Counted from the stretch's first letter, positions 2,889-27,417 are shown. The stretch is DNA of 64,000 bases from Gammaproteobacteria bacterium (GCA_016705365.1 JADIYI010000008.1:559787-623786); one strand, 5' to 3'. The notes: generated by a model from the letters alone, not told the origin. Numbers and translations are program-made.

Positions 2889-4583
2889 ATGTGGCAGTGG
2901 TTCGCGGATACCTTGCGGAGCAATCCCGAGATCGCGATATTCCTCACCCTCGGACTTGGCTTCTGGGCGGGGAAATTCAAGTTCGGTTCGTTCAGCCTGG
3001 GAGTCGTGACCAGTACCCTGCTCGCGGGTGTGCTCGTTGGCCAGCTCGGCATCACGATCTCTGCCCACGTCAAATCCACGTTCTTTCTGATGTTCCTGTT
3101 CGCGGTGGGATATGGCGTCGGACCGCAGTTTTTCCGTGGTCTGAAGGGTGACGGTGTTCCGCAGGTATTGTTCGCGCTGATGCAGTGCGTGGCGGTGCTG
3201 CTTACCGCGGCAGGCGTCGGCTATCTGCTCGGCTACGACGCCGGCGGCACGGCTGGCCTGCTGGCCGGTGCCAGCACCATCTCCGCGGTACTCGGCGTCG
3301 CCACCGACAGCATCAACCAGCTCGCGCTCGACGCCTCCGGGAAGAAGGCGATGCTCGATGCGATGCCGGTTGCCTACGCGGTGACCTACCTGTTCGGCAC
3401 CGCCGGGTCGGCGTGGCTTCTCGCCACCCTCGGGCCGAAGATCCTCGGCGTGGATATCGCCGAGGAGTGCCGCAAGTACGAGGCCGAGATGGGCGGTGCG
3501 CTGGCCGACGATCCCGACCGTCTTTCCGGTTACACGACATTCGTGTTGCGTGCTTACCGGCTCACCGACCCGAGCTGGGTCGGGCGCACGGTCGCCGAAT
3601 TCGAGGCCAGCTTCGTCGGCCAGAGAGTGTTCGTCGAGCGTCTGCGCCAGGACGGTGAACTGCTCGATCCGGCTCCCGAGCTGGTGCTGCGACAGGACGC
3701 GATCATCGCCATCGCCGGGCGGCGAGAGGTCGTGCTCGAGCGCGCCCTGCAGCTTGGCGTCGAAGTCGATGACCGCGAGTTGCTCGACCTCGAGATCGAG
3801 CGGCTCGACGTCGTGATCACGCGCAAGGAGGTTGCCGGCCTGTCGCTGCAGGAACTCGCGACCGGCGGGCTCGGTGACAACCTGCGCGGTGTGTTCTTGC
3901 GCAAGATCCTGCGCACCGGGGTCGAGATGCCGATCACCATGGGCTTCAGGCTGGAGCGTGGCGACACGCTCACGCTGGTGGGTCCGCGTACCCACGTCGA
4001 TCGCGTGGTGCCGCAGATGGGCTATGCCGATCGTCCCACCGACGAGACCGATATGGTCGTGATGGGTGCGGGTATCGTGATCGGTGCGCTGATCGGCGCG
4101 CTGACATTCCGCCTCGGCGGCGTGCCTCTCAGCCTGAGTACCAGTGGCGGTGCGCTGATCGCGGGGCTGGTATGCGGCTGGTTGCGTTCCGTGGATCGTA
4201 CCTATGGCCGCATCCCCGGCCCGGCTTTGTGGGTGTTCAACAATATCGGGTTGAATGTTTTCATTGCAGTGGTGGGCATCAGCGCCGGCCCGGGGTTCGT
4301 CGCCGGACTCAAGGCGCAGGGTCTCGAGCTGTTCCTCGCCGGTATCGTGGTGACCACCGTACCCCTGATCATCGGCCTGCTCGCCGGGAAATACCTGTTT
4401 CGCATGAAGGCGCCGATCATCCTCGGCGCCTGTGCCGGCGCACGCACCACCACGGCCGCGCTCGGCGCAATCGAAGAGGAGGCGAAGAGCAAGGTTCCGG
4501 CCCTTGGCTATACCGTGACCTATGCAGTCGGCAATACGCTGCTGACCGTGTGGGGCGTGGCAATCGTATTGCTGATGAGCTGA
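2889..4583 (+). CDS. AspT/YidE/YbjL (AAEx, aspartate:alanine exchanger) family transporter with two central RCK_C/TrkA-C domains
   Basis: ATG at 2889 (MWQWFADTLRSNPEIAIFLTLGLGFWAGKFKFGSFSLG...) lies 35 nt after the decarboxylase stop. The ORF-track start at 2607 overlaps the decarboxylase and is rejected. Hydrophobic halves flank two soluble RCK_C-like segments. About 564 aa, as for YidE/YbjL. Confidence 0.85.
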   Translation: MWQWFADTLRSNPEIAIFLTLGLGFWAGKFKFGSFSLGVVTSTLLAGVLVGQLGITISAHVKSTFFLMFLFAVGYGVGPQFFRGLKGDGVPQVLFALMQCVAVLLTAAGVGYLLGYDAGGTAGLLAGASTISAVLGVATDSINQLALDASGKKAMLDAMPVAYAVTYLFGTAGSAWLLATLGPKILGVDIAEECRKYEAEMGGALADDPDRLSGYTTFVLRAYRLTDPSWVGRTVAEFEASFVGQRVFVERLRQDGELLDPAPELVLRQDAIIAIAGRREVVLERALQLGVEVDDRELLDLEIERLDVVITRKEVAGLSLQELATGGLGDNLRGVFLRKILRTGVEMPITMGFRLERGDTLTLVGPRTHVDRVVPQMGYADRPTDETDMVVMGAGIVIGALIGALTFRLGGVPLSLSTSGGALIAGLVCGWLRSVDRTYGRIPGPALWVFNNIGLNVFIAVVGISAGPGFVAGLKAQGLELFLAGIVVTTVPLIIGLLAGKYLFRMKAPIILGACAGARTTTAALGAIEEEAKSKVPALGYTVTYAVGNTLLTVWGVAIVLLMS

Positions 4584-4637
4584 GCCGGAGGCGAGAGTTG
4601 CAACTGATTTTTTGATCGTAAATCCAGGAGTCCCAAC

Positions 4638-6023
4638 ATGAAAGAACTGATATTGCCGCATCGCGGAACGGTTTCCCGCCCCCACGCAGCCCTCGCGGTG
4701 ATGTTGTCGGTGCTTGCGCTGCCATTGTCGGCCCACGCCGACGATGTCGCGGACCTGAGACGCGAGCTCGAGGCCTCGCGCGCCGCGATCGAGCGCCTGG
4801 AACAGCGCATCCTCGATCTCGAATCCGCGCGCACGGCTCCCGCCGCCGCAGCGATGGCTCCGGCCGTTGCCACGGCGCCGGCAGTAGCGCCGGCAGCCGC
4901 GACGCAGCCCTCCAACGATGCCAAACTCGATGTCTACGGTTTCGTGCAGCTCGACACGATCTACGATTTCAATCAGTCCGACCCCAACTGGAAGGACGCG
5001 CTGCGCGTCTCGAAGATCCCGATCAACTGCCCCGACGACGCCGGCTGCGGCAAGGATGGCGAGACCGTTTTCGGGGTGCGCCAGACACGCATCGGCGTGC
5101 GCGGCAAGATCCCGACGGAAATTGGCGAGCTGAACACCAAGCTCGAATTCGAACTGTTCGGCGTAGGTGCCGACGAAGGGAAGACCACGCCGAGGCTGCG
5201 CCATGCCTGGGCGGAGCTCGGCGAATTCGGCGCCGGCCAGACCTGGTCGCTGTTCATGGATCCGGACGTGTTCCCCAACACCATCGAGTACTGGGGTCCG
5301 ACCGGCATGATTTTCGTGCGTAACCCGCAGCTGCGCTGGACGCCGTACCGCACGGCAGGCCAGCAGTTTGCGATCGCCCTGGAATCGCCGTCCTCGGCAC
5401 TGGACACCGGCAAGATCTCCGACATCGACCCCGACGATAACCCGCTGTCGATCCAGAGCGAGAACAACCTGCCCGACCTGACCGCGCAGTGGCGCTCGAG
5501 CGGTGACTGGGGCCATGTGCAACTGGCCGGCATCGTGCGCTCGGTGGGATTCGAGACCGCCAACACCGCCAATGGCAATCCCTCGGGCGAGGAAACCGGC
5601 TGGGGCTTGAATGGCAGCGCCAGCATTGCGGTCACCGGACGCGACAAGCTGCACCTGCAGCTCGCCTATGGCGAGGGCATCGCGAGTTATATCAACGATG
5701 GCGGCAGCGACCTTGCACCGAACGACGATCTCACGGGTGCGGAACTGCTTCCGTTGCTGGGCGCACTTGCCTATTACGACCACTACTGGAGCGAGCGCTG
5801 GAGCAGCAGCATCGGCTGGAGCATCGCGGAACAGGACACCACCCGAGGACAGTACGGCAGCGCCTACGAAAGCGCGCAGTATGGCAACCTGAACCTGTTG
5901 TACTATCCCGCGCCGGGGATCATGATCGGTGGCGAGCTGATGTATGGCGAACTGGAGCTGAAGGACGGCAGCACGGCCGATGATACGCGCATGCAGATGT
6001 CCTTCAAGTACAGCTTCGACTGA
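4638..6023 (+). CDS. DcaP-like trimeric outer-membrane porin (signal peptide, N-terminal coiled coil, beta-barrel)
   Basis: AGGAG at 4626-4630. Signal peptide ends ...LSAHA/DD. Heptad-like DVADLRRELEASRAAIERLEQRILDLESA, then an Ala/Pro linker, then alternating aromatic beta-strand pattern (KLDVYGFVQLDTIYDF ... MQMSFKYSFD). Confidence 0.6.
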   Translation: MKELILPHRGTVSRPHAALAVMLSVLALPLSAHADDVADLRRELEASRAAIERLEQRILDLESARTAPAAAAMAPAVATAPAVAPAAATQPSNDAKLDVYGFVQLDTIYDFNQSDPNWKDALRVSKIPINCPDDAGCGKDGETVFGVRQTRIGVRGKIPTEIGELNTKLEFELFGVGADEGKTTPRLRHAWAELGEFGAGQTWSLFMDPDVFPNTIEYWGPTGMIFVRNPQLRWTPYRTAGQQFAIALESPSSALDTGKISDIDPDDNPLSIQSENNLPDLTAQWRSSGDWGHVQLAGIVRSVGFETANTANGNPSGEETGWGLNGSASIAVTGRDKLHLQLAYGEGIASYINDGGSDLAPNDDLTGAELLPLLGALAYYDHYWSERWSSSIGWSIAEQDTTRGQYGSAYESAQYGNLNLLYYPAPGIMIGGELMYGELELKDGSTADDTRMQMSFKYSFD

Positions 6024-6151: not shown

Positions 6152-7816
6152 GTGAAAGTGCAATCAGGATCGTTGGTGATCGATTTTCTGCGGACCAACC
6201 CCGTCTTTACCCTGTTCATCATTCTTGGCGGTGGTTATCTGCTGGGGCGGTTGCGCATCGGGCCGGTTTCGCTCGGGCCCGTCGCCGGCGCGCTGCTCGT
6301 GTCCCTGGTGTTCGGGCAATTCGGGTTCAAGGTCAGCGAAGGTGCCCAGTCCGTAGGTTTCGCGCTGTTTATTTTCGCGGTTGGCTACCAGGCGGGGCCG
6401 CGCTTTTTCGAAGTGCTGAAAACCCAGGGGCTGCAGTACCTGGCGCTGGCACTGTTCGTGGCCGGTACCGGCGGAGCCATTGCGATCGCGGCCGGCCGGC
6501 TGCTCGATCTGCCTTTTGGTGGCACGGCGGGACTGCTCGCCGGCGCGATGACCACTACCCCCACGCTCGCTGCGGCGCAGGACGCGGTCCGTTCGGGCAT
6601 CGTGGCGCTGCCCGAAGGGGCAAGCGCGGACAGCGTGCTCGCCACTATCGCCTCGAGCTATGCGATCACCTATATCGTGGGTCTGCTTGGCATCATTGCG
6701 ACGATACGCATGCTGCCGCGCGTGGTCGGCGTCGACCTGGCCGCGGAAGCGGCAAAGATGGAAGAAGCGGGCAAACCGCAGCGTGGCGGTCAATTGCAGG
6801 CACGCGCCTATCGTGTCACCCGCCCCGAGGCATGCGAGCCCACGGTCAGGATGATTCGCGCCCGCTTCTGGGACGCGATGTCGGTCACGAAGTTGTTGCG
6901 CAACGGCGAATGGGTGCGTCTCGGCGACGATGAGCACCTGCAGCTTGGCGACGAGCTCCACGCTTATGGTGACTCGAGCTTTTTCCGCGGTGGAGTCGAA
7001 GAACTGGGGGAAGAAATTCCCGTTTCGCCCGAAATCGACATGTCTGCGGACTATACCCACGTCGTCATCGCGCGCCGTGGCGCGGTCGGCAAGACGATCG
7101 CGGAACTCAATCTCGCGCGCAACCACGGACTCGTCGTCACCGAGGTGCGGCGTGATGGTGTTCGGCTTCCGCTCAGCAGTCACCTGCGTCTGCAGCGCAG
7201 CGATGTGCTGAGCGTGGCAGGACCCAAGCCGGGCTTGCGAGAGATGCAGGAAGTCCTCGGCCCGGTGGAGTCGGGCATTGCCGAGACTGATATGGCGACG
7301 TTTGCGTTTGGCATTGCGCTCGGTGCCCTGATCGGCGTTTTCGCCATCAATGTGGGCGGGGTGCCGATCGGACTGGGCATGGCCGGGGGCTTGCTCGGCT
7401 CCGGGATTTTCGTGGGCTGGTTCAATGCCATTCGGCCGACCTTCGGCAGGTTTCCCGAGGCCGCGCGGTGGATACTGATGGAATTCGGGTTGATGATCTT
7501 TATCGTTGGCGTCGGCTTGCAGGCCGGTGGCCAGATCGTCGCGACTTTTGCAAAAGCGGGCCCGGCGCTGGTCCTGGCCGCGATCCTGGTGGTCGCGGGA
7601 CCAGCCCTGCTCGGTTATGTCTTTGGTCGCAAGGTGTTGCGCCTGCATCCGGTGCTGCTGCTTGGTGCGCTCACCGGTGCGATGACCAGCGCGGCCGCCA
7701 TGGCGCTGGTCAATCGCGAGGCAAAGAGCGCGATACCGGCACTTGGTTATACCGGAACCTACGCCTTCGCCAACGTGATCCTCACGGTCGCCGGCACGCT
7801 GATCATGTTCGTATGA
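6152..7816 (+). CDS. Second AspT/YidE/YbjL (AAEx) family transporter paralogue with RCK_C domains
   Basis: 554-aa ORF with a GTG start (6152 or 6158; uncertain). Same architecture as 2889-4583 (LGGGYLLGRLRIGPVSLGPVAG...; FAVGYQAGPRFF; C-terminal GYTGTYAFANVILTVAG mirrors GYTVTYAVGNTLLTVWG). Confidence 0.85.
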   Translation: MKVQSGSLVIDFLRTNPVFTLFIILGGGYLLGRLRIGPVSLGPVAGALLVSLVFGQFGFKVSEGAQSVGFALFIFAVGYQAGPRFFEVLKTQGLQYLALALFVAGTGGAIAIAAGRLLDLPFGGTAGLLAGAMTTTPTLAAAQDAVRSGIVALPEGASADSVLATIASSYAITYIVGLLGIIATIRMLPRVVGVDLAAEAAKMEEAGKPQRGGQLQARAYRVTRPEACEPTVRMIRARFWDAMSVTKLLRNGEWVRLGDDEHLQLGDELHAYGDSSFFRGGVEELGEEIPVSPEIDMSADYTHVVIARRGAVGKTIAELNLARNHGLVVTEVRRDGVRLPLSSHLRLQRSDVLSVAGPKPGLREMQEVLGPVESGIAETDMATFAFGIALGALIGVFAINVGGVPIGLGMAGGLLGSGIFVGWFNAIRPTFGRFPEAARWILMEFGLMIFIVGVGLQAGGQIVATFAKAGPALVLAAILVVAGPALLGYVFGRKVLRLHPVLLLGALTGAMTSAAAMALVNREAKSAIPALGYTGTYAFANVILTVAGTLIMFV

Positions 7817-11902: not shown

Positions 11903-13582
11903 TCATGAAACGGCCTTGCGCGCAACGCTCGCCACCGCGGCTTCCACGGTCGCGAACATCCCGGCCGATCCCAGTGTCTCGGGGAGACTGGTACGGCGCA
12001 CGGCGCTCAGCGAAGTCGGGTTCAGCGCGGCCAGCACAAGGTTGATACCCCGAGCACGGAATCCGGCAGCCATTTCCACCAGTCCTTTCAGCGCGGTGTA
12101 TTCGAAATCCGGGATCGCGCCGCAGTCGAGAATCAGCGCCGTGGGCATTGCCGATTCCACCAGTTCGCGCAGCTTCTCGCCGACGTTCTGCGCATTGGCA
12201 AAGTAGACGCGGCCCTCGATACGCGCGATCAGGAGTCCTGGCGTCGATTCGTCCTCCCGGTGCTCCGCAGAGCGGGGGCGAAACACGTTGGTGCCCGGCT
12301 TGCGGCGCAGTTCGTAGACCATGGGGTTGTTTGCCTGATACATCAGGCTCAGCATCGACAGCAGCACGGCAACCAGGATTCCCTTCAAGGTCCCGAGAAA
12401 TATCACGCCGAGAAAGGCCGCGATGGCCCAGCGGAACTCGACTGCGCGGACTTTCAGGATTGCCCGCATCTCGCCGGGATCGATCAGGCCCACCGAATAG
12501 GCGATCACGACCGCAGCCAGCGTGGCATGCGGCATCTTGCCTATGATCGGAGCAAGAAAGAGCATCGTCGCCAGCGCGGTCAGGGCCGCGACCATCCCGG
12601 CAACCTGGCTTCTGGCGCCAGCCAGGGTGTTTATGGCGGTCTGCGATGTCCCGCCACCTCCCGGCATCGCGCCAAAAAAGCCGCCCACCACATTGCCCAT
12701 CCCGGTTGCCACCAGCTCCTGATCCGATACCACCCGGGCTTCACCCTCGCGGCGGAACGCGCGGGCCGCCGCGATGGTCTCGGTGAAGCTCATCAGCGCA
12801 ATGCCGAGCGCCGCCGGCCACAGCATCAGCAGCAGACTCCGGTCCGGGCTCGAGAACGCTGGCAGCCCGCCAGGAACGGTCCCGACGACACTGACGCCAG
12901 CGGCCTCCAGCCCCAGCAGTGACGAGGCGGCAATCGCCCCGCCAATGGCAATCACCGGCGCCGGCGCGCGCGGCAATACTTTGGCGACCAGCACCAGGCA
13001 TAACAGGGTGGCGACGGCAACCAGCAGCGTCGTCATCGAACTGTGAGGCAGCCCGGATGCGATCGCGAACAGGTCGCGCAGGAATCCGCTCTTGTCGATA
13101 TGCACGCCGAGTACCTTGGGCAACTGGTCGACGACGATGACGCAACCGATGCCGGCCTTGAAGCCGGTGAGCACCGGGTCGGAGATGAAGCTGGCGAGGA
13201 AACCGAGCCGCAGCACGCGCGCTGCCAGCAGCATCAGGCCAACCAGCAGCGAGAGTGTTGCGGTTGCCGTCAGCAGTGGGATATCCGGCTGCGCGGCGGC
13301 CACCTCCCCGAGCGCGGCGCCCGAAAGGATGGCGATGGTGGTGGTCGTGGTCACGCTCAGGGTCGCAGAGGTACCCAGCGGCACGTAGACGAGCGGCGGG
13401 ATGAACGCCGTGTACAGGCCCACCTGAAGCGGGAGGCCGGCGATCGCCGCATAGGCCATGGCCTTGGGAATCACCACGGCTGCCGCGGTCAGGCCCGCGA
13501 CGATGTCAGCTCCCAGCCAGCCCCGTCGGTAACGTGCGATCCAGCCGATCGCGGGGACGAGGCTCCTCGAGGTGCTGTTCAC
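11903..13582 (-). CDS. SulP-family anion transporter with C-terminal STAS domain
   Basis: GTG start preceded by GGGAGA. N-terminal WLGADIVAGLTAAAVVIPKAMAYAAIAGLPLQVGLYTAF is the SulP signature region. C-terminal STAS-like segment (LLIARIEGRVYFANAQNV...ILDCGAIPDFEYTALKGL). Confidence 0.9.
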   Translation of the reverse strand: MNSTSRSLVPAIGWIARYRRGWLGADIVAGLTAAAVVIPKAMAYAAIAGLPLQVGLYTAFIPPLVYVPLGTSATLSVTTTTTIAILSGAALGEVAAAQPDIPLLTATATLSLLVGLMLLAARVLRLGFLASFISDPVLTGFKAGIGCVIVVDQLPKVLGVHIDKSGFLRDLFAIASGLPHSSMTTLLVAVATLLCLVLVAKVLPRAPAPVIAIGGAIAASSLLGLEAAGVSVVGTVPGGLPAFSSPDRSLLLMLWPAALGIALMSFTETIAAARAFRREGEARVVSDQELVATGMGNVVGGFFGAMPGGGGTSQTAINTLAGARSQVAGMVAALTALATMLFLAPIIGKMPHATLAAVVIAYSVGLIDPGEMRAILKVRAVEFRWAIAAFLGVIFLGTLKGILVAVLLSMLSLMYQANNPMVYELRRKPGTNVFRPRSAEHREDESTPGLLIARIEGRVYFANAQNVGEKLRELVESAMPTALILDCGAIPDFEYTALKGLVEMAAGFRARGINLVLAALNPTSLSAVRRTSLPETLGSAGMFATVEAAVASVARKAVS

Positions 13583-14288: not shown

Positions 14289-15125
14289 CTAAAACGCTTC
14301 GGGAATCACCTTGGCGCCGGCCGGAAGCGAGGACTTTGTCCTGGCCACCTTGCGTTTTGGCAGTCTTACCTTGTCCGCTTTGACGGACTTGTACGGAATG
14401 CAGCTCAACAGGTGCGTGATCAGATTCAGACGCAGTCGCTTCTTGTCGTCGGAATTGGCCACGTACCATGGCGCGGATGTAGTGTCGGTAGCCTGCAGCA
14501 TTTCGTTGCGCGCCCTGGTGTAATCATCCCAGCGGGTGTAGGACTTGAGGTCCATCGGTGTCAGCTTCCAGATCTTGCGTTCGTCGTCGATGCGATCCAT
14601 CAGCCGGCGTGTCTGCTCGTCGGGACTGACTTCCAGCCAGTACTTGATGAGGATGATGCCCGACTGAACCATCGCCATTTCGACCAGCGGCACGCCAAGC
14701 AGGAAATGCTGCGCCTGCTCGTCCGTGCAAAACCCCATCACGCGCTCCACACCGGCACGGTTGTACCAGCTGCGGTCGAATATCACGACCTCTCCTGCCG
14801 AGGGAAAATGCTGCACGTATCGCTGCAGGTACATCTGGCTCTTCTCGCGCTCGGTTGGTGCAGGGAGTGCCACCACCCGGAATACCCTCGGGCTCACGCG
14901 CTCGGTGATCGCCTTGATGGTCCCGCCCTTGCCGGCACCGTCGCGGCCCTCGAACACGATGCACACCTTGGCGCCGGTTTTCTGCGCCCACTGTTGCACC
15001 TTCACCAGCTCGCCATGCAGCCGCTCGAGCTCCTTCTCGTACTCCTTGCGCTTCAGTTTTCCGTCCGGTTTCGCTTCAGCGCCCTTGGCGCGGCCGGGCT
15101 TGCCGCGATTGCCTTTCGTGGTCAT
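14289..15125 (-). CDS. ppk2: Polyphosphate kinase 2 (PPK2 family)
   Basis: GGAGG 6 nt upstream of ATG 15125. PPK2 Walker-A-type motif FEGRDGAGKGGTI, plus DRSWYNRAGVERVMGF and KIWKLTPMDL. Confidence 0.9.
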   Translation of the reverse strand: MTTKGNRGKPGRAKGAEAKPDGKLKRKEYEKELERLHGELVKVQQWAQKTGAKVCIVFEGRDGAGKGGTIKAITERVSPRVFRVVALPAPTEREKSQMYLQRYVQHFPSAGEVVIFDRSWYNRAGVERVMGFCTDEQAQHFLLGVPLVEMAMVQSGIILIKYWLEVSPDEQTRRLMDRIDDERKIWKLTPMDLKSYTRWDDYTRARNEMLQATDTTSAPWYVANSDDKKRLRLNLITHLLSCIPYKSVKADKVRLPKRKVARTKSSLPAGAKVIPEAF

Positions 15126-15144
15126 GATTCCTCCAGTGATCGAC

Positions 15145-15164
15145 GATTTTCCGCATGGAAAATC
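15145..15164. promoter_or_regulatory. Perfect palindrome GATTTTCC-GCAT-GGAAAATC in the ppk2 upstream region (candidate operator)
   Basis: 8-bp arms with a 4-bp spacer, 20 nt upstream of the ppk2 ATG, in the divergent intergenic region. Confidence 0.3.
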
Positions 15165-15355
15165 CGCTGCCGCGTTGTTTCGGGTCAAAACAGCCGCACC
15201 AAGCAGTTTTACGAGCGGTTTGCACAGGGTGCATTTCTAGCGGACTTCGATCGGCAATGCAATCGGAGATTGACAAGCTGCGACGAATGACGATTGAATC
15301 GAATTTTGCCGCGCAGGATCCACCAAGCAGCGGACCGGTATGGAGATCAGTTTTT

Positions 15356-15634
15356 ATGGCCGACCACGCTGATGACGGAGGCACCATCGTCGCTCTTCTC
15401 GATCGCTTCAGGTTGCAGCGCCTTCCCGCGGCGCTCGCGTTGAAGGAAAAGGTGGGCCGCGGTGAAAAGCTGAGCGACGCCGATCTCGAGTTTCTCGATC
15501 GCGTGCTCGAAGACATGCGCGATGGACAGCCGCTGGTGTCCCGCCATCCCGAGCTTGCGGCGCTTCTGGGCAAGGTTTCCGGCCTTTACAAGGAAATCAC
15601 CGACGCTGCGTTGGCAAACGAACAGGCCGGATGA
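15356..15634 (+). CDS. Small helical hypothetical protein (92 aa; start uncertain, alternatives 15257/15287)
   Basis: GGAGA 9 nt upstream of ATG 15356. Noticeably more T-ending codons than its neighbours. No family recognised. Confidence 0.45.
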   Translation: MADHADDGGTIVALLDRFRLQRLPAALALKEKVGRGEKLSDADLEFLDRVLEDMRDGQPLVSRHPELAALLGKVSGLYKEITDAALANEQAG

Positions 15635-15649
15635 ACGGCACTGCCGTGT

Positions 15650-16651
15650 CTATCGCAGGTACGATTTTGCCACGTTGAAGAAGTCCGTCTTTGCAGGCAA
15701 TGACCCGAACTCGATGTCGAGCAGCAAGATGACCGCCAGTCCGCCCCGGGAATCGCGCAGCTGTTGCAGGCTCATGGGGCGCGCGATCGAATCAGGCGTG
15801 GAGCGCAGCACGTTGCGGTGATCGAGAATCAGCGAGCGCGGTTCGATCCATAATTGCTGCTCTGCGGTGCCAAGCGCCGTCGTGAGCATCTGCAAATGCG
15901 TTTCCAGGGTTTCGGAATCGGCACCGATTGCATTGATCCCGGCCTCGATTTCCTCCAGCCGTCGTTCGAGTGCGGCGATATCCGGGGTTGCGGCATCCTC
16001 CTTGTCGAAATTCCAGCCAGCAGCCTTCAGCGTACTCAGTTTGCGTTTGAGCAGCGCGCGCTGCCCGCCCAGTTCCTGGCGGGAATCGCGGCGCTTGCCG
16101 ATCGCCTCGAGGACCTGTGCAAGCAGGTGATCGAAGGCGCGTCGCTTCAGCGCGCGCAGTGTTTCGGATGCGTCCGTGAACGGGTCCACGAGGCGATGCT
16201 CATCGAAACTGACAATGGTTTGCCGCACATCGCGTTTCATCATGCCCTCTTCCTGGTCGATGCCGAGGGTATGCTTTTCACTTATCTGTGCGACGAGCAG
16301 GGCGATATGGCGCGTGTTGGCTGCGCGCCGGGCCGCGTCGATGTTGCGATCGTTCGCGAGCACCTCGAGCATGCGCCGGGGGGAGGCGAACATCGCGCCC
16401 AGCAGCGGCTCGCCGCGATAACTCTCGCCGCTCACGACAACCGCTGCCGCCAAGCCATCGATCAGGCGCACGACATGATCGACGGCGTGCAGCACCGGCT
16501 CGCGCAGGCGTTTGCGATAGCCGCTCAGCGCGCGCAGCCGCGGATCGGTTCCGTCCACGGCGCGTTCTATCGCGGCTTCGACCAGTGATTCCGGATAGCC
16601 GGTGTCCTGCGTCGCGCGGCGCGCGAAAATCGACTGAAACAGGCTGAACAT
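15650..16651 (-). CDS. Hypothetical protein, 333 aa, predicted soluble with a coiled-coil-like central region
   Basis: Long ORF with coding-type codon bias. No motif recognised. Central segment RQELGGQRALLKRKLSTLKAAG...LERRLEEIEAGINAI. Confidence 0.6.
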   Translation of the reverse strand: MFSLFQSIFARRATQDTGYPESLVEAAIERAVDGTDPRLRALSGYRKRLREPVLHAVDHVVRLIDGLAAAVVVSGESYRGEPLLGAMFASPRRMLEVLANDRNIDAARRAANTRHIALLVAQISEKHTLGIDQEEGMMKRDVRQTIVSFDEHRLVDPFTDASETLRALKRRAFDHLLAQVLEAIGKRRDSRQELGGQRALLKRKLSTLKAAGWNFDKEDAATPDIAALERRLEEIEAGINAIGADSETLETHLQMLTTALGTAEQQLWIEPRSLILDHRNVLRSTPDSIARPMSLQQLRDSRGGLAVILLLDIEFGSLPAKTDFFNVAKSYLR

Positions 16652-16932
16652 AGGCTGCTCGATGCGTATCCATAGTTGACTGCAAATCGCCGGTCTTCAT
16701 GCTACCTGCTTTTTTGCAGACCGCCCAATTTGAGCGCACTCGCCAGGTATCGGGTCTGCGCGATCCGCTCTCCTCGCTGCCCTGGAAACGAAACCCCGTG
16801 CACGAGCTGTTTTTTTGTTCGCGAGCGCATCGCGTCGGGATATGACGTTATACTCGTGCGCTGGTTGCGTGGCCTGAAAAAACCGATGCGAAGTTCGGTG
16901 ACGTGCATCGTGGCAAGGGACCCGAAAGCTCC

Positions 16933-18726
16933 ATGAAGAATTCGATTCGCTACGGGGATTATTTGCGGGTACTCGGTGCCGGGCGCCAGCAGATCAGCCT
17001 GCGGGATGTGGTGCCGCCGGTGACGCGCGACGCCAGCGGTCAGCCGATCTCGGTGCCCCGTCCGAAACTCAAGCTCCATGGCTCCGAGATCGTCGGCCTG
17101 CTGAGGCCCTATGCGTATATCAGGTTTGCGGAGCAATTCAGGGCCGTGGTTCCGCTGGCGCTGTACCTTGCGCTGTTCCAGGTTCTGATCCTGCGTCAAC
17201 TGGTCGAGGACTCGTGGTTGATCACGGGCGGACTGTTCGCGGTGATCGTTGGCCTGATGTTGTTCATGGAGGGCCTGAAGCTCGGCCTGATGCCGTTCGG
17301 TGAACTCATAGGCCACACTCTTCCGCGCAAGTCGCCGCTGCCCCTGGTGCTGTTCATCACGCTGCTGCTCGGCATCGGCGTGACCTTCGCGGAGCCGGCC
17401 ATCGGCGCCTTGCAGGCGGCGGGACAGAACGTCTCGGCGGAACGCGCACCGTATCTCTGGGCGTTGCTCAACCAGTGGGTCGGGACACTGGTGCTGGTCG
17501 TCGGCGCCAGTGTCGGCCTGGCGGCCGTGCTGGGGACGCTGCGATTCCTCTATGGCTGGAGCCTGAAACCGCTGATCTATGCTTCGCTGTTGCCGATTCT
17601 CGGGCTGACGGTGTATGGCTCGACGGATCCCGAATTTGCCAAGGTCATGGGGCTTGCCTGGGATACCGGCGCCGTCACGACCGGACCGGTCACCGTGCCG
17701 CTGGTTCTTTCCCTGGGGATCGGAATTTCGGCGGCCGCGGGAAAGGGTGGTTCAGGTCTGTCGGGCTTTGGCATCGTGACCCTCGCCTCCCTGTTTCCGG
17801 TGCTCGGTGTGCTGTTGCTGGCGCTGTACGTGGCCGCCACTTCCGACCCCGCCGAGATCATCGCTTTTGCGGCGCATGCCGCAACCATAGTGGATACGGA
17901 CGCACTCCCCTGGTACGAGCGTAGCCCGGGACTCGAGGTGGTTCTGGGCATCAGGGCGATACTGCCGCTGGTGCTGTTCCTGTTCCTGATTCTCAAGCTG
18001 ATCCTGCGCCAGGATCTGCCGCGGCGAGGCGAAATGCTGCTGGGTATCGGGCTGACTATCGGCGGCATGTGCATCTTCAATATCGGTCTCACCTACGGGC
18101 TGTCGATGCTCGGTGCCGGCGCCGGTTCCCTGGTTCCGGCTGCCTTCATGGAAGTCCCGGCAGCCAGCGGATCGCCGCTGTATCTCTACCCGGTCGGCCT
18201 GAGCCTGGCGCTGGTGTTTGCCTGGCTGCTTGGCTTTGGAGCAACCCTGGCCGAACCCGCCCTGAACGCCCTCGGTGTCACCGCGGAACAGCTTACCAAC
18301 GGTTTTTTCCGCAAGCGCATGCTGATCACGTCGGTATCGCTCGGCGTCGCCTTTGGTATTGCGGCGGGAGTTGCGAAACTGGTGTTCGAACTGCCGCTGG
18401 TGTGGATGATAGTGCCGGCCTATCTGGTCGCTGCGTTCCTGACCTCGATCTCCTCGGAGGAGTTCGTCAACGTGGCATGGGACAGCGCGGGTGTGACCAC
18501 TGGTCCGATAACGGTACCGCTGGTGTTGGCGATGGGGCTGGGTTTCGGCAATGCCACGAATGCGGTCGAGGGTTTCGGGATCCTGTGTCTCGCCTCCATC
18601 GGACCGATCATCAGTGTGCTGCTGGCCGGCCAGCTGGCGCGGTTCAAGGCCGCCATGCAGGCCAGGGCAGCCAGCAGCGAACAAGAAGGCTCCGGTGGGG
18701 ACAATGAGGCGCAGGTACTGACATGA
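16933..18726 (+). CDS. Membrane protein made of two fused DUF1538 repeats
   Basis: ATG 16933 (GTG 16903 is possible). Internal duplication is visible (AWDTGAVTTGPVTVPLVLSLGIG vs AWDSAGVTTGPITVPLVLAMGLG; GFGIVTLASLFPVLG vs GFGILCLASIGPIIS). LFMEGLKLGLMPFG is DUF1538-like as I recall. Confidence 0.8.
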   Translation: MKNSIRYGDYLRVLGAGRQQISLRDVVPPVTRDASGQPISVPRPKLKLHGSEIVGLLRPYAYIRFAEQFRAVVPLALYLALFQVLILRQLVEDSWLITGGLFAVIVGLMLFMEGLKLGLMPFGELIGHTLPRKSPLPLVLFITLLLGIGVTFAEPAIGALQAAGQNVSAERAPYLWALLNQWVGTLVLVVGASVGLAAVLGTLRFLYGWSLKPLIYASLLPILGLTVYGSTDPEFAKVMGLAWDTGAVTTGPVTVPLVLSLGIGISAAAGKGGSGLSGFGIVTLASLFPVLGVLLLALYVAATSDPAEIIAFAAHAATIVDTDALPWYERSPGLEVVLGIRAILPLVLFLFLILKLILRQDLPRRGEMLLGIGLTIGGMCIFNIGLTYGLSMLGAGAGSLVPAAFMEVPAASGSPLYLYPVGLSLALVFAWLLGFGATLAEPALNALGVTAEQLTNGFFRKRMLITSVSLGVAFGIAAGVAKLVFELPLVWMIVPAYLVAAFLTSISSEEFVNVAWDSAGVTTGPITVPLVLAMGLGFGNATNAVEGFGILCLASIGPIISVLLAGQLARFKAAMQARAASSEQEGSGGDNEAQVLT

Positions 18727-19097
18727 ACGAAACCAAGATTACCTACGTTACGGATGTGTCGCTGATCACCTGCGTGGTTTCCGCCGGGCGCAGCGACGCA
18801 GTGATCAAGGCGGCACAGGATATGGGCGCGACCGGTGCTCTCGTGTATCACGCACGCGGGGTAGGCCCCCGCGAAAGGCTTGGATTGCTCGGCATCGCTA
18901 TTGAAGCGGAAAAGGAAGTCGTCAGTATCCTGGTCGCGAGCGACTACGAGGAAATCGTATTCGAGGCAATATACCGGGCCGGAGAGCTCCATGTGCCGGG
19001 AGCCGGCATGGCCTACATGACGCGCCTGGACAAGATGGCTACCTATATTCCCCGCGAAATTCTCCAGCGCGCACGCGGTCCCGAGGCCAGGGAATGA
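18723..19097 (+). CDS. PII-like (GlnB-superfamily fold) small signalling protein, paralogue 1
   Basis: ATGA start/stop overlap with the DUF1538 gene. Beta-alpha-beta pattern LITCVVSAGRSDAVIKAAQDMGATGALVYHARGVG...EKEVVSILVASDYEEIVFEAIYRAG...GAGMAYMTRL. Confidence 0.7.
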   Translation: MNETKITYVTDVSLITCVVSAGRSDAVIKAAQDMGATGALVYHARGVGPRERLGLLGIAIEAEKEVVSILVASDYEEIVFEAIYRAGELHVPGAGMAYMTRLDKMATYIPREILQRARGPEARE

Positions 19098-19501
19098 ACC
19101 CGCCGGGGCAGCTGCCCGTTCCCGGAGCGAAGGCGAAGCTCATCTATTGCCTCGTTCCCGACGATGGCAGCGAGCGGCGCTTGCTGCAGGAACTGCGCGA
19201 GCGCCATGGAATCACCCGCGCCAACAGCGTTTACTGCCGCGGTGTGTCGATTCCGCGCGGAAGCGCCGGGCGGCGCGGGAAAATGCCCGAGCCGCAACTC
19301 GTGCGCCTGCTGACGGTCGTGGTGGATACGGCGGAGGCAGACGCGATGTTCGATTTCATCTACGAATACGCCAATATCGGTCGCCCGGGAGGCGGCGCGG
19401 TATTCATGGCGCCGCTGTCGTTTGCGACACCGTTCCCGATGCCTGCGGATGTTGCCGACGAGTCGGGCCCGGATTCCCGGCACACGGCGGTATCCCGCTG
19501 A
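19094..19501 (+). CDS. PII-like small protein, paralogue 2 (divergent)
   Basis: ATGA overlap with the preceding gene. KLIYCLVPDDGSERRLLQELRERHGITRANSVYCRGV...VRLLTVVVDTAEADAMFDFIYEYANIGRPGGGAVFMAPL fits the same fold pattern. Confidence 0.6.
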   Translation: MNPPGQLPVPGAKAKLIYCLVPDDGSERRLLQELRERHGITRANSVYCRGVSIPRGSAGRRGKMPEPQLVRLLTVVVDTAEADAMFDFIYEYANIGRPGGGAVFMAPLSFATPFPMPADVADESGPDSRHTAVSR

Positions 19502-19513
19502 GGGAGACACGCA

Positions 19514-19519
19514 TATAAT
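19514..19519 (+). promoter_or_regulatory. Consensus -10 hexamer TATAAT upstream of 19592 CDS
   Basis: Perfect TATAAT in GC-rich context, 73 nt upstream of the start. No convincing -35. Confidence 0.3.
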
Positions 19520-19591
19520 CACCCGCTGGCGGCGGGCACTTCGCTGACTGTCGTCAATCATCACGCTACAGACAAACAAGGAGCAAGAACG

Positions 19592-20182
19592 GTGCGAATG
19601 TACAAGATTGTAATGGGAGCCCTGGTGGCGGCCCTGTTGGCGGGTCCGGTTGCCGCTCAAACCGGCATGGTTGCCGCGGGCTCCGCGCCCGGAAAGGCAA
19701 GCGTGGCAGAAACGGTCGAGGTTCAAGGCACTATCGCTGCGATAGACTCCGAAACGCGCGCCGTGACACTCAAAGGCGAGAACGGCAAGGAAGTCAGCGT
19801 GGAGGCAGGCCCCGAGGTCAGGAATTTCGCACAACTGAAGGTCGGTGATACCGTCACGATCACGATGACGCAGGCGTTGACCCTGGAGCTCAAGAAGGGA
19901 AGCACTGCCGTGGTATCGCGTACCGACGATGCTGCCGGTGCGCGGGCTGCCGAGGGCGAACAGCCGGGTGGTGTGATCGGGCGCAAAGTCACGATCATGG
20001 CCGAGGTCACGGCTGTCGACGCAGAGACCCGCTCGGTCACGCTGCAGGGACCCAAGCAGAGCGTCGAGCTGACGGTCAAGGATCCTGCGCAATTCGCGCT
20101 GATCAGCGTGGGTGACCGTATCGAGGCAACCTATGTGGAAGCGGCCGCCGTCTCCGTCGAGCCAGTCAAGCAGAAGGACTGA
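19592..20182 (+). CDS. Secreted protein with two tandem small beta-barrel-like repeats (CusF-like topology, no Met/His ligands)
   Basis: AAGGAG at 19578-19583. GTG 19592 or ATG 19598. Signal peptide ...LLAGPVAAQ. Internal repeat VEVQGTIAAIDSETRAVTLKGENGKEVSVEAGPEVRNFAQLKVGDTVTI vs VTIMAEVTAVDAETRSVTLQGPKQSVELTVKDPAQFALISVGDRIEA. Confidence 0.65.
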   Translation: MRMYKIVMGALVAALLAGPVAAQTGMVAAGSAPGKASVAETVEVQGTIAAIDSETRAVTLKGENGKEVSVEAGPEVRNFAQLKVGDTVTITMTQALTLELKKGSTAVVSRTDDAAGARAAEGEQPGGVIGRKVTIMAEVTAVDAETRSVTLQGPKQSVELTVKDPAQFALISVGDRIEATYVEAAAVSVEPVKQKD

Positions 20183-20202
20183 GCAGCCCATCATGCCGTG
20201 TG

Positions 20203-24577: not shown

Positions 24578-26038
24578 TCAATCGCGCCAGAATGCGGGCG
24601 TGAACAGCACCAGCAGGGTAAAGATCTCGAGTCGCCCGAGCAGCATCGACAGGCACAACAGCCATTTTACCGGCGCCTCCATGTCGAAGTAGTGCAACGC
24701 CACCTCGCCGAGCCCGGGACCGAGGTTGTTGAGCGTCGCGGCGACTGCGGAGAACGCGGTGAGAAAGTCGAGCTTGGCCAGCAAGAGTGCAAACAGGATC
24801 ACCAGGAACGTCAGCACATAGACCGCAAGAAAGCTCCAGACCGCGATGATCACCCGGTCGGGAATGGTGCGCGATCCAAGCCGCACCGGCAGCACCGCGC
24901 GCGGATGCACCAGCTGGCGCAGTTCACGCAGTCCCTGCTTGCCGATCAGCAGCATGCGAACCGCCTTGATCCCGCCGGCGGTGGATCCGCTGCATCCGCC
25001 CATGCAGGCAAACAGCAACAGCAGCAGCGGCGCGAAGGCGGGCCAGTCGAGGAAATGCCCGGTAGTGAAACCCGTGGTGGTGACCACTGACACCACATGG
25101 AACACTCCCTGCAGCACCCCGTCGGCGGGCCCGTGCGAGCCGGCGCCGAGCAAGGTCGCCGCAGTCAGTACCGACAGCACCGCGATCACCGTCAGAAAGA
25201 ACCGTGCTTCCGGGTCGCTGGCATAAAAGCGCAACGAGCGCTGACGCCAGCACAGGTAGTGAAGCGCGAAATTCAGTGCCGCAAGCACCATGAACACGAT
25301 GCTGATCACTACAATCAGCGGGTTGTCGAAGTGACCCAGGTTCGCATCATGGGTGGAAAATCCACCGACCGAGACCGTCGAGAAGCTGTGTGCCACCGCG
25401 TCGAAGACATCCATGCCCGCCAGCCAATAGGCCAGTGCGCAGCAAGCCGTGAGCGCCAGATAGATCAGGAACAGCTGGCCAGCCGTGCCCAGGATGCGTG
25501 GCGTGAGCTTGTTGCTCTTCATGGCGCCGGGTGTTTCCGCCTGGTAGAGCTGCATCCCGCCGACGCCGAGCAGCGGCAGGATCGCGATCGCGATCACGAT
25601 GGTGCCGATGCCACCGAGCCATTGCAGCTGCTGGCGGTAATACAGTACCGAGCGCGGCAGTGTGTCGAGTGCGTCGATCACGGTGGCTCCGGTCGTGGTA
25701 AGGCCCGATACCGACTCGAACAGGGCGTTGCTCAGATCGAGTTGCGGCTCGGGAACCAGCAGCAACGGCAGCGCTCCGAATCCACCGAGCACCACCCAGA
25801 ACAGCGTGGCGATCACGAACCCGTCGCGGGTGCGCAGCTCGGTGCGCGCGCCTCGGCTGGGTACCCACAGGGCGCCACCGCACGCCGTGGTGATCAGGAA
25901 TCCCAGCGCCAAGGCGGGCCCTGCGCCGTCGCGATCGATCAGGGAAATCGCCAGCGGCACGAGCAGCGTCAGGCCGAACAGGATCAGCAACAAGCCGAGC
26001 AGATGACAGATAAGCGCAAAACGCGTGGTACGACGCAT
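24578..26038 (-). CDS. trkH: Trk-system potassium uptake protein TrkH
   Basis: 486-aa polytopic protein with TrkH-like repeats (SGLTTTGATV, SVGGFSTHD, TTTGFTTGHF, GGCSGSTAGGIK). Confidence 0.9.
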   Translation of the reverse strand: MRRTTRFALICHLLGLLLILFGLTLLVPLAISLIDRDGAGPALALGFLITTACGGALWVPSRGARTELRTRDGFVIATLFWVVLGGFGALPLLLVPEPQLDLSNALFESVSGLTTTGATVIDALDTLPRSVLYYRQQLQWLGGIGTIVIAIAILPLLGVGGMQLYQAETPGAMKSNKLTPRILGTAGQLFLIYLALTACCALAYWLAGMDVFDAVAHSFSTVSVGGFSTHDANLGHFDNPLIVVISIVFMVLAALNFALHYLCWRQRSLRFYASDPEARFFLTVIAVLSVLTAATLLGAGSHGPADGVLQGVFHVVSVVTTTGFTTGHFLDWPAFAPLLLLLFACMGGCSGSTAGGIKAVRMLLIGKQGLRELRQLVHPRAVLPVRLGSRTIPDRVIIAVWSFLAVYVLTFLVILFALLLAKLDFLTAFSAVAATLNNLGPGLGEVALHYFDMEAPVKWLLCLSMLLGRLEIFTLLVLFTPAFWRD

Positions 26039-26043
26039 GGTGT

Positions 26044-27417
26044 TCAGAAGAAACTGAAGCCGACCTGGAACAGTTTTTCCACCTCTCGCGTGCGGCTCTT
26101 GTCGACCAGGAACAGGATCACGTGGTCACCGCTTTCGACCAGCACGTAACGGTGTGCAATCAGCACCTTCTCGCCGCGCACGATCGCGCCGATGGTCGCT
26201 CCCTCGGGCAGCTTGATCTCGCCAAGGGTTCTGCCCACCACCTTCGAGTTGCTGGCATCGCCGTGGGCGACGATCTCGAGCGCTTCGGCGGCACCGCGTC
26301 GCAGGCGGTAGACGTTGGTCATGTGGCCGCGGCGCACATGTGTCAGCAGGCTGCCGATCGTGACCAGTTGCGGCGATACCGCGATGTCGATATCCACGCC
26401 CTGCACCAGGTCGACGTAGGCGGGATTGCCGATCAGGGTGATGACCTTGGTGGCGCCGAGTCGTTTGGCGAGCAGCGAGGACATGATGTTTATCTCGTCG
26501 TCGTTGGTCAGCGCGCAGAATACATCCGTGTCCTGGATGTTCCCGGAGATCAGCAGCTCGCGATCCGAGGCGCTGCCCTTGAGCGCAATGCCATGGTGCA
26601 GACGTTCGCTCAGCAGGTTGCAACGCTCGGGGTGCATCTCGATGACCTTCACGTTGTAGCGCGACTCGATGGTCTCCGCGAGACGCATGCCGATGTTTCC
26701 GCCACCCGCGATCATCACTCGCCTGTAGGGTTTGTCGGCGCCTCGCATCTCGGCCATGACCTGCAGAATGTGCTCGCGCGCGGCAATGAAAAACACGTCA
26801 TCGTCGGCCTCGATGACGGTGTTGCCTTCGGGGATGATCGGGCGGTTGCGACGAAAGATCGCGGCAACGCGGGTATCGGCCTGCGGCATGCGCTTGCGGA
26901 TTTCGGCCAGCTGTTGCCCGACCATCGGTGCGCCGTGCTGCGCCTTGACCCCGACCAGCCGCACCCTTCCTTCGGCGAAATCGAGCACCTGTAGCGAGCC
27001 CGGCAGGTCGATCAGGCGCTCGACGGCGTTGGTCACCAGCTGCTCGGGGCTGATGATCACATCGATCGGGATCGCTTCCTTGCAGAACAGCGCTCCTTTC
27101 TGGGTATAGGAATGGCTGCGGATGCGCGCAATGCGGGTGGGTGTGCGAAACAGGGTGCAGGCCACCTGGCAGGCGACCATGTTGACCTCGTCGCTGTTGG
27201 TGACGGCAATCAGCATCTCGGCATCCTGGGCGCCGGCCCGCGCCAGCACCCCGGGGTGCGATCCGTGTCCCGATACGGTCCCGATATCGAGACGGTCCTG
27301 CAGTTCGCGCAGCCGATTGCTGTCCTTGTCGATCAGCGTGATGTCGTTTTTCTCGCTGGCGAGATGTTCGGCCAGCGTACCACCCACCTGCCCGGCTCCG
27401 ACGATGATTATCTTCAT
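26044..27417 (-). CDS. trkA: Trk-system potassium uptake protein TrkA (two NAD-binding plus RCK_C modules)
   Basis: MKIIIVGAGQVGGTLAEHL and a second Rossmann motif VMIAGGGNIGMRLA. 457 aa. Confidence 0.95.
   Translation of the reverse strand: MKIIIVGAGQVGGTLAEHLASEKNDITLIDKDSNRLRELQDRLDIGTVSGHGSHPGVLARAGAQDAEMLIAVTNSDEVNMVACQVACTLFRTPTRIARIRSHSYTQKGALFCKEAIPIDVIISPEQLVTNAVERLIDLPGSLQVLDFAEGRVRLVGVKAQHGAPMVGQQLAEIRKRMPQADTRVAAIFRRNRPIIPEGNTVIEADDDVFFIAAREHILQVMAEMRGADKPYRRVMIAGGGNIGMRLAETIESRYNVKVIEMHPERCNLLSERLHHGIALKGSASDRELLISGNIQDTDVFCALTNDDEINIMSSLLAKRLGATKVITLIGNPAYVDLVQGVDIDIAVSPQLVTIGSLLTHVRRGHMTNVYRLRRGAAEALEIVAHGDASNSKVVGRTLGEIKLPEGATIGAIVRGEKVLIAHRYVLVESGDHVILFLVDKSRTREVEKLFQVGFSFF

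Follow-up and report, generated by a model that had tools for sequence, protein, structure and literature searches.

The three genes considered here lie on a 64,000-nucleotide (nt) stretch of DNA from a gammaproteobacterium (GCA_016705365.1), referred to below as the window; coordinates are counted from its first letter unless another locus is named. They are consecutive open reading frames (ORFs) on the + strand and encode a membrane protein with two DUF1538 domains, followed by two small PII-like proteins, which we designate PIIa and PIIb. Their positions agree with those given in an earlier reading of the same DNA (the sequence-only reading), which had proposed a three-gene, ligand-gated transport module. 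The features of the locus are as follows.

16652-16932, + strand: 5′ intergenic leader, divergent from a 333-amino-acid (aa) gene (15650-16651, − strand), with GGGA approx. 12 nt before the ATG
16933-18726, + strand: double-DUF1538 membrane protein, 597 aa, with an UmpA-like N half, an UmpB-like C half and 7+7 predicted transmembrane (TM) segments
16933-17136, + strand: N-terminal extension (residues 1-68), K/R-rich, predicted to be cytoplasmic, conserved in the subfamily
17158-17826, + strand: DUF1538 domain 1 (residues 76-298), with the family-invariant Glu154 (AEP) and Asp244 (AWDTGAVTTGP)
17950-18657, + strand: DUF1538 domain 2 (residues 340-575), with the invariant Glu441 (AEP) and Asp517 (AWDSAGVTTGP) and a loop charge opposite to that of domain 1
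18723-19097, + strand: PIIa, 124 aa, core DUF1538-associated PII-like type
18858-18911, + strand: T-loop region of PIIa (residues 46-63), GVGPRERLGLLGIAIEAE, near-invariant
19094-19501, + strand: PIIb, 135 aa, divergent PII-like paralog
19244-19294, + strand: predicted T-loop-like loop of PIIb (residues 51-67), from DSSP and the predicted local distance difference test (pLDDT) of the AlphaFold2 (AF2) model, low confidence

The first ORF can be read as a protein of 597 aa from the ATG at 16933 or of 607 aa from a GTG at 16903. We favour the ATG, since the GGGA/GGAG Shine-Dalgarno sequence located approx. 12 nt 5′ of it recurs in related loci, and since the homologs found in the genome scan align from residue 1 of the ATG-start version. 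The TGA stop codon of the transporter gene overlaps the ATG of the PIIa gene (ATGA, 18723-18726), and the TGA of the latter overlaps the ATG of the PIIb gene in the same way (ATGA, 19094-19097), so that both overlaps claimed earlier were confirmed in the sequence. This arrangement of start and stop codons suggests coupled translation. A 383-aa ORF (19043-20194, − strand) runs antisense across PIIb and the CusF-like gene that follows it; because it is antisense to conserved genes we regard it as most likely spurious, like many ORFs in DNA rich in G+C.

The leader had been described as comparatively AT-rich. Its G+C content is indeed slightly lower (0.58, compared with 0.61-0.67), but it is not conserved: among 10 related loci we found no conservation apart from the Shine-Dalgarno sequence. 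A riboswitch or other leader RNA was considered and rejected, as Rfam gave no match in the window at the gathering score and nothing credible in the leader, which is itself unconserved. A sigma-54 promoter was likewise rejected, since the leader contains no such site with two or fewer mismatches.

Pfam recognized DUF1538 (PF07556) in two stretches of the membrane protein (E 3e-100, 334 bits against a cut-off of 22.6). The two halves are 35% identical over 209 aa (E 1e-18) and contain all six of the motifs that had been quoted for them, which bears out the proposed internal duplication. In NCBIfam, residues 65-297 matched UmpA best (NF041627) and residues 340-575 matched UmpB best (NF041628). 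UmpAB of Halomonas zhaodongensis consists of two DUF1538 proteins that catalyze pH-dependent Na+(Li+,K+)/H+ antiport; activity required co-expression of the two genes in E. coli KNabc, and co-immunoprecipitation revealed a heterodimer (PMC5484666). The DNA fragment cloned in that study carried a truncated ORF1 and ORF2-4, with umpB as ORF4, and PII genes are not mentioned in it (PMC5484666). Homologs of UmpAB have also been described in saltwater cable-bacteria genomes, with a proposed role in salinity adaptation. The statement in the sequence-only reading that DUF1538 has no experimentally defined substrate is thus wrong at the family level, given the antiport activity of UmpAB (PMC5484666) and the curated NCBIfam models for UmpA and UmpB.

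The genome scan yielded 490 relatives of the fused protein, and 2869 cluster representatives were recovered at E ≤ 1e-3. In place of the separate subunits of UmpA/UmpB, both domains are encoded by one ORF, as is also the case in 80/80 related loci; split DUF1538 forms occur in Methylocystis and Chelativorans. The assignment of the halves to specific subunits of distant split loci was tried and abandoned as ambiguous (25-38% identity to both halves). The longer DUF1538 relatives contained no additional Pfam domain. Two long DUF1538 fusion proteins (P0282 and P0303, in the range of 774-991 aa) contain low-complexity inserts rich in Ser and Asp, which in at least one case lie in loop 1′-2′. Some of the long DUF1538 proteins look eukaryotic, and the fused form may therefore also exist outside bacteria.

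Every DUF1538 domain examined, distant ones included, contains the Glu in A-E-P and the Asp in (W/F)-D-x-G-x-V-T-T-G-P. The invariance of these motifs throughout the family suggests a common coupling chemistry, and E154/D244 and E441/D517 may be regarded as candidate ion-coupling residues. The N-terminal extension is also conserved, with Y7, G15-R18, E52, P59, Y60 and R64 invariant in the alignment of homologs and a mean of 10.4 K+R residues across 81 homologs. Hydropathy analysis revealed seven hydrophobic segments in each half, and the net loop charge reverses sign between equivalent loops of the halves at 6/8 positions (81 homologs). This pattern suggests a 7-TM domain with its N-terminus inside, followed by an inverted 7-TM domain, i.e. 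an antiparallel inverted repeat whose halves probably enter the membrane in opposite orientations. If so, the subunits of split UmpA/UmpB-type pairs would also be inserted in opposite orientations.

The linkage of the three genes was analyzed in the best 80 loci of the 490 relatives (58-81% identity to the fused protein), which come from Chromatiaceae, Pseudomonas, Thiobacillus, Halothiobacillus, Sulfurovum, Nitrospina, Nitrosomonadales and others. PIIa is located directly downstream of the DUF1538 gene in 80/80 of these loci, and PIIb is present in all 79 with enough downstream sequence: in 77 it was detected by tblastn and in two (L068 and L077) by profile, while L079 was left out of the count as its contig ends within PIIa. 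The ATGA overlap is retained at approx. 75 of the 79 transporter-PIIa junctions and at approx. 52 of the 76 PIIa-PIIb junctions. A metagenome scan seeded with PIIa gave another 80 loci, and among those with enough flanking sequence DUF1538 lies directly upstream in 71/71 and PIIb downstream in 70/70. The other neighbours of the three genes differ between loci, and we therefore consider the unit to be a three-gene cassette. In this respect the locus resembles the systems in which PII proteins gate transporters: a PII gene adjoins a transporter gene, start and stop codons overlap, and the arrangement is kept across taxa.

More distant loci revealed variants of the same association. Of the distinct DUF1538 loci carried on plasmids or chromids, 7/7 are followed directly by a PII gene. 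In Peptoclostridium, Paraclostridium, Acetoanaerobium, Vescimonas and Subdoligranulum, a fused DUF1538 gene is accompanied by a gene for a tandem double-PII protein. These proteins are 217-224 aa long in four Firmicute loci (in the unannotated Subdoligranulum locus the longest ORF is 305 aa), and their genes, each of approx. 220 codons, are located as follows.

L081, 4054-4722: tandem PII gene
L084, 4775-5449: tandem PII gene
L167, 3054-3722: tandem PII gene
L169, 3064-3717: tandem PII gene

In the alphaproteobacteria Methylocystis and Chelativorans the DUF1538 genes are split and only one PII gene accompanies them. Against the PIIa profile, these single PIIs and the C-terminal domains of the tandem PIIs score highly (52-87 bits), and their match to the PIIb profile is weak, for which reason PIIa is the core DUF1538-associated PII type and the second PII a more divergent partner. 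Since the C-terminal domain of the tandem proteins is of the PIIa type, the order of domains in the Firmicutes is reversed relative to the PIIa-PIIb gene order in the window. The three-gene linkage postulated in the sequence-only reading is therefore conserved (80/80 and 71/71 loci for DUF1538-PIIa, PIIb in all testable loci, and 7/7 distant DUF1538-PII pairs), and no testable locus was found in which it is absent.

The affiliation of the small proteins with the PII superfamily emerged mainly from profiles. As a single sequence, PIIa matches the Pfam P-II family (PF00543) with E 5e-4 and 20.8 bits, below the gathering score of 25. A profile of 80 PIIa sequences matched only PII structures in the PDB: the best was Archaeoglobus GlnB (E 2.9e-6), with an alignment over the full domain (residues 14-105 of PIIa with residues 3-99 of GlnB), and PII chain 9p1x of a NifI complex was also matched (E 9e-6). 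PIIa homologs are named "P-II family nitrogen regulator" by NCBI and P-II family regulators by JGI, and some carry a precomputed PF00543 match. PIIb alone has no Pfam match, and the NCBIfam search of both proteins gave none; PF00543 was matched at E ≤ 0.01 by 3/77 PIIb homologs, most of which are annotated as "hypothetical". A 77-sequence PIIb profile nevertheless matched only PII structures in the PDB (best E 1.9e-4). PIIb as modelled by AF2 (pLDDT 78) follows the order beta-alpha-beta, loop, beta-alpha-beta, as expected for the ferredoxin-like PII fold with its T-loop between beta2 and beta3, and the model's top 50 matches in a Foldseek search of the PDB are all PII/GlnK (probability 1.00).

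PIIa and PIIb share only approx. 20% identity but are clearly homologous according to hhalign (99.1%, E 1e-18). Judged by fold and profile, they are paralogs within the PII superfamily. The earlier description of two PII-like proteins with little sequence in common thus agrees with our data, and an outcome that would have spoken against it, namely products placed outside this superfamily, did not occur.

Neither protein is a canonical GlnB or GlnK. The canonical GlnB signatures are the modification site Y51, the B-loop T-x3-G-D-G-K-I-F, and R38/Q39, K58 and R101/R103 for ATP/2-oxoglutarate. Compared with E. coli GlnB, PIIa retains the equivalents of GlnB G35, G37, K58, G87 and G89, and has I in place of Y51, A in place of D88 and M or L in place of K90; the B-loop of PIIb reads GRPGGG. 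The T-loop region of PIIa is approx. 5 residues shorter than that of GlnB, in line with the short or atypical T-loop noted previously. Its motif G-x-G-x-R-E-R-L-G-L-L-G-I-A-x-E-x-E-K is the best-conserved part of PIIa: G46, R50, E51 and G54 are present in 100% of the sequences, and the T-loop region is followed by K64, which aligns with GlnB K58.

Comparison with known systems suggests how such a cassette might work. With UmpAB, the membrane protein shares the Pfam family in both halves, the order of the halves (the N half resembling UmpA and the C half UmpB, as in umpA-umpB) and approx. 7 predicted membrane segments in each domain. UmpA and UmpB are active only in combination, as a heterodimer; in the window their counterparts are joined in a single chain of 597 aa, which also carries the conserved N-terminal extension of 68 residues.

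Two PII-controlled transporters offer parallels on the regulatory side. In AmtB-GlnK the T-loop of the PII protein plugs the cytoplasmic exit of the transporter, and there, as here, the genes are adjacent and co-transcribed. In contrast to GlnK, the proteins described here have Y51, D88 and K90 replaced and R101/R103 apparently lost, and score under the Pfam gathering threshold; moreover, the transporter is not an Amt protein and there are two paralogs. In SbtA-SbtB, as in the window, a non-canonical PII-like protein is encoded beside a secondary transporter, the T-loop is the expected contact element and adenine nucleotides are likely ligands. The differences are that DUF1538 is unrelated to SbtA (Pfam reports only DUF1538 in the membrane protein, i.e. 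neither SbtA nor Amt), that two PII paralogs are present in place of one, that PIIa lacks a C-terminal R-loop and has a shorter T-loop, and that the substrate is probably a cation and not bicarbonate. The analogy with GlnK-AmtB and SbtB-SbtA drawn in the sequence-only reading seems reasonable to us; given this parallel, the strict co-occurrence of the genes and their codon overlaps, a physical complex of transporter and regulators would be the best reading of the cassette.

The mode of assembly may be compared with NifI1-NifI2, methanogen PII paralogs that inhibit nitrogenase and form heterotrimeric PII complexes (preprint). Both systems have two divergent PII paralogs, which in NifI act together. 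Because of this precedent, a heterotrimer of PIIa and PIIb, as suggested earlier, is possible. However, NifI acts on a soluble enzyme and not on a membrane transporter, it binds ADP and 2-oxoglutarate, for which several canonical PII residues are replaced here, and the tandem 1:1 fusions of the Firmicutes argue against a simple 2:1 heterotrimer. Since a 1:1 tandem cannot fill a three-subunit ring, a single mixed trimer seems disfavoured, and these fusions argue for two trimers or some other assembly.

Taken together, the cassette may be read as a self-contained unit in which two PII-like proteins gate a fused cation/proton transporter of the UmpAB type, probably with an adenine nucleotide as the ligand; we consider the chances of this reading to be about even. 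The first gene would encode a secondary transporter that is a covalent fusion of UmpA-like and UmpB-like parts, and translational coupling through the overlapping codons would supply the three products in fixed amounts. The PII-like proteins would dock on the cytoplasmic face of the transporter, and the conserved T-loop of PIIa would open or plug it when a small ligand, most likely an adenine nucleotide, is sensed. As the protein is homologous to UmpAB, the reaction would most likely be antiport of Na+, K+ or Li+ against H+, so that the module would tie ion and pH homeostasis to the energy or metabolic state of the cell. In the sequence-only reading, the overlapping, conserved cassette and the PII identity of the small proteins hold up, while the view of the transporter as one of a family with no defined substrate does not.

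The genes surrounding the cassette in the window are listed below, together with a regulator gene found ahead of it in a related locus.

11903-13582, − strand: SulP permease with a STAS domain (Pfam, NCBIfam), a possible functional associate and not a core part
14289-15188, − strand: PPK2
15155-15634, + strand: 159-aa ORF
15650-16651, − strand: 333-aa protein with no Pfam match
19592-20182, + strand: 196-aa protein, N-terminus resembling a signal peptide, two CusF-like stretches (Pfam E 5.7e-8)
L165, 3368-5026: GAF-domain sigma-54 activator, preceding the cassette

The one neighbour that recurs is a SulP/STAS permease gene, which lies within 6 kb in 16/80 loci; in the window it is situated approx. 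3 kb upstream. In four Chromatiaceae loci (L012, L020, L022 and L165) the SulP gene begins 5-8 bp after PIIb, and the window protein is 61% identical to the SulP of L165; L078 is also listed among the cassette loci with a SulP neighbour. NCBIfam assigns these SulP proteins to its generic sulP type; they are not BicA or DauA equivalogs. Locus L165, of the Allochromatium type, has the order GAF-sigma54 activator, DUF1538, PIIa, PIIb, SulP and AI-2E/UPF0118, followed by homologs of the 333-aa gene, the 159-aa ORF and PPK2 of the window. The upstream genes of the window are thus syntenic but inverted within the Chromatiales. The PPK2/159-aa/333-aa unit of L165 (11125-14307; 43-69% identity) is itself inverted relative to the cassette. 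In two other loci (L036 is named in this connection) Ppx/GppA phosphatase genes lie downstream of the cassette, which, with the PPK2 unit, hints at a possible link to polyphosphate metabolism. L165 also has a sigma-54-like site, TGGTAAATTTTTTGCT, at approx. 5150-5165, some 40 nt before the ATG of the transporter gene; the window has neither the activator gene ahead of the cassette nor such a site.

Four further loci (L068, L070, L073 and L074) have, directly upstream of the cassette (approx. 3300-6000), a gene for a CPA1 Na+/H+ exchanger of 820 aa fused to a cNMP-binding domain; in L073 and L074 this gene shares the strand of the cassette and abuts it. On the downstream side in the window, the sequence-only reading had placed a secreted tandem beta-barrel protein behind a perfect TATAAT. 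The hexamer (19513-19518) does precede the gene for the 196-aa CusF-like protein, but the promoter scan called no site at this hexamer and no conserved partnership is seen: CusF-like relatives occur within 6 kb of the cassette in approx. 6/80 loci (the others named are L007, L008, L049, L055 and L063). The CusF-like gene and the leader lie outside the conserved unit. The CusF-like, PPK2, 333-aa and PlsC genes were considered as parts of the module and rejected, as they are not conserved outside close relatives. Farther away in the window are potassium-uptake genes, TrkH and TrkA (24578-27417, − strand, approx. 5 kb downstream of the cassette), and a gene for an AspT/YidE-type transporter with a TrkA-C domain (6152-7816, + strand, approx. 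9 kb upstream); their nearness may be coincidence.

We consider a monovalent cation (Na+, K+, Li+)/H+ pair to be the most likely substrate of the fused subfamily by homology with UmpAB, and both the two invariant carboxylates per DUF1538 domain and the CPA1 exchanger gene adjacent in four loci are consistent with cation/proton coupling. Several observations weigh against a PII-gated cation/proton transporter. The UmpAB assignment comes from one study, which relied on complementation of a heterologous host, E. coli KNabc, and on everted vesicles (PMC5484666), and the window protein scores 204 bits with the UmpA model and 157 bits with the UmpB model, against equivalog cut-offs of 490 and 500, respectively. 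By these scores it is a fused relative of UmpAB and not an equivalog, and because they are less than half of the cut-offs, its substrate may differ from that of UmpAB. The gene most often found near the cassette codes for an anion-type permease (SulP) and not for a cation transporter. Loop 5′-6′ departs from the charge pattern of an inverted topology. The membrane protein gave an AF2 model of mediocre quality (pLDDT 67), and a Foldseek search of the PDB with this model found no significant match to a solved transporter; nor did a sequence search of the PDB with the protein reveal any detectably similar structure. In PIIa the ATP/2-oxoglutarate contacts Q39 and K90, as well as Y51, are replaced, and TYIP stands where GlnB has R101-R103, a stretch that the hidden Markov model alignment does not reach. 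Finally, no DUF1538-PII fusion protein was found among 150 cluster representatives.

Some of these observations would fit a transporter for a metabolite or another ion, still gated by the PII-like proteins, with the antiport of UmpAB being a side activity or specific to its own subfamily. Beside the low UmpA/UmpB scores, the identity to distant DUF1538 proteins is only 25-38%, the neighbouring genes are diverse with no single theme, and the UmpAB laboratory, judging by the titles of its papers, has described Na+/H+ antiport for several unrelated families in the same assay. As the Glu and Asp motifs invariant throughout the family suggest a common coupling chemistry, and as no positive evidence points to any other substrate, we regard this explanation as unlikely.

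Gating of an anion or inorganic carbon transporter (for bicarbonate or a sulfate-like oxyanion), with the PII-like proteins sensing carbon or energy as SbtB does on SbtA, is less probable again. It has in its favour the SulP gene, which is the only recurrent neighbour, directly follows PIIb in several Chromatiaceae and lies upstream in the window, the many chemo- and photoautotrophs among the carriers (Chromatiaceae, Thiobacillus, Halothiobacillus, Sulfurovum, Nitrospina, Nitrosomonadales), and the precedent of SbtB, a PII-like protein encoded beside its transporter. However, the membrane protein shows no likeness to SbtA, either in Pfam, which reports only DUF1538, or among the top 50 Foldseek matches listed; the sole characterized member of the family is a cation/proton antiporter (PMC5484666); the adjoining SulP proteins are not BicA equivalogs; and the module is also present in heterotrophic Pseudomonas and in gut or anaerobic Firmicutes. 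The SulP adjacency fits a Na+-cycling partner of a Na+-coupled anion symporter equally well; it could thus reflect a shared Na+ cycle or an anion substrate, the latter of which we rank lower.

AmtB-bound GlnK controls DraG, so that sequestration of PII at the membrane is an established mode. That DUF1538 is mainly an anchor or sensor from which the PII-like proteins are released onto other targets, with gating not the main output, is nonetheless improbable, for although two different paralogs could serve two outputs and SulP, PPK2 and other genes recur nearby in the Chromatiales, the cassette occurs whole and as a self-contained unit in different phyla, neither a further partner nor a candidate target is conserved, and its codon overlaps suggest coupled translation and matched product amounts.

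A more specific form of the PII-gated cation/proton transporter can be put forward tentatively. Alongside Amt-GlnK and SbtA-SbtB, the cassette might represent a third widespread class of PII-controlled transporters, present in several phyla and apparently not yet described, in which an inverted-repeat cation/proton antiporter is governed by a heteromeric PII assembly (its paralogs fused in a tandem chain in the Firmicutes) through a non-canonical ligand, other than the ATP/2-oxoglutarate pair, and which would link Na+/K+/pH homeostasis to energy or second-messenger status. We hold this to be somewhat doubtful as a whole.

In the library searched, none of the papers that mention DUF1538 links it to PII. 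Parts of the cassette are already labelled in databases ("DUF1538 domain-containing protein", "P-II family nitrogen regulator"); the novelty lies in reading them as one system and in the second PII paralog, which lacks an annotation. PII proteins rank with the most widespread proteins in signalling, and, to our knowledge, structural work has covered only a few of the transporters they act on, mainly AmtB and SbtA. The conserved trio points to a widespread but little-studied form of PII control over a transporter. The module is present in culturable and partly genetically tractable bacteria (Pseudomonas, Allochromatium), which makes the hypothesis directly testable. If it is true, the poorly understood DUF1538/UmpAB family would gain a regulatory context, a natural two-paralog or tandem-fused PII system would become available for studying heteromeric PII signalling, and the principle of PII as a transporter plug would reach a third, structurally unsolved transporter family, and with it ion and pH homeostasis.

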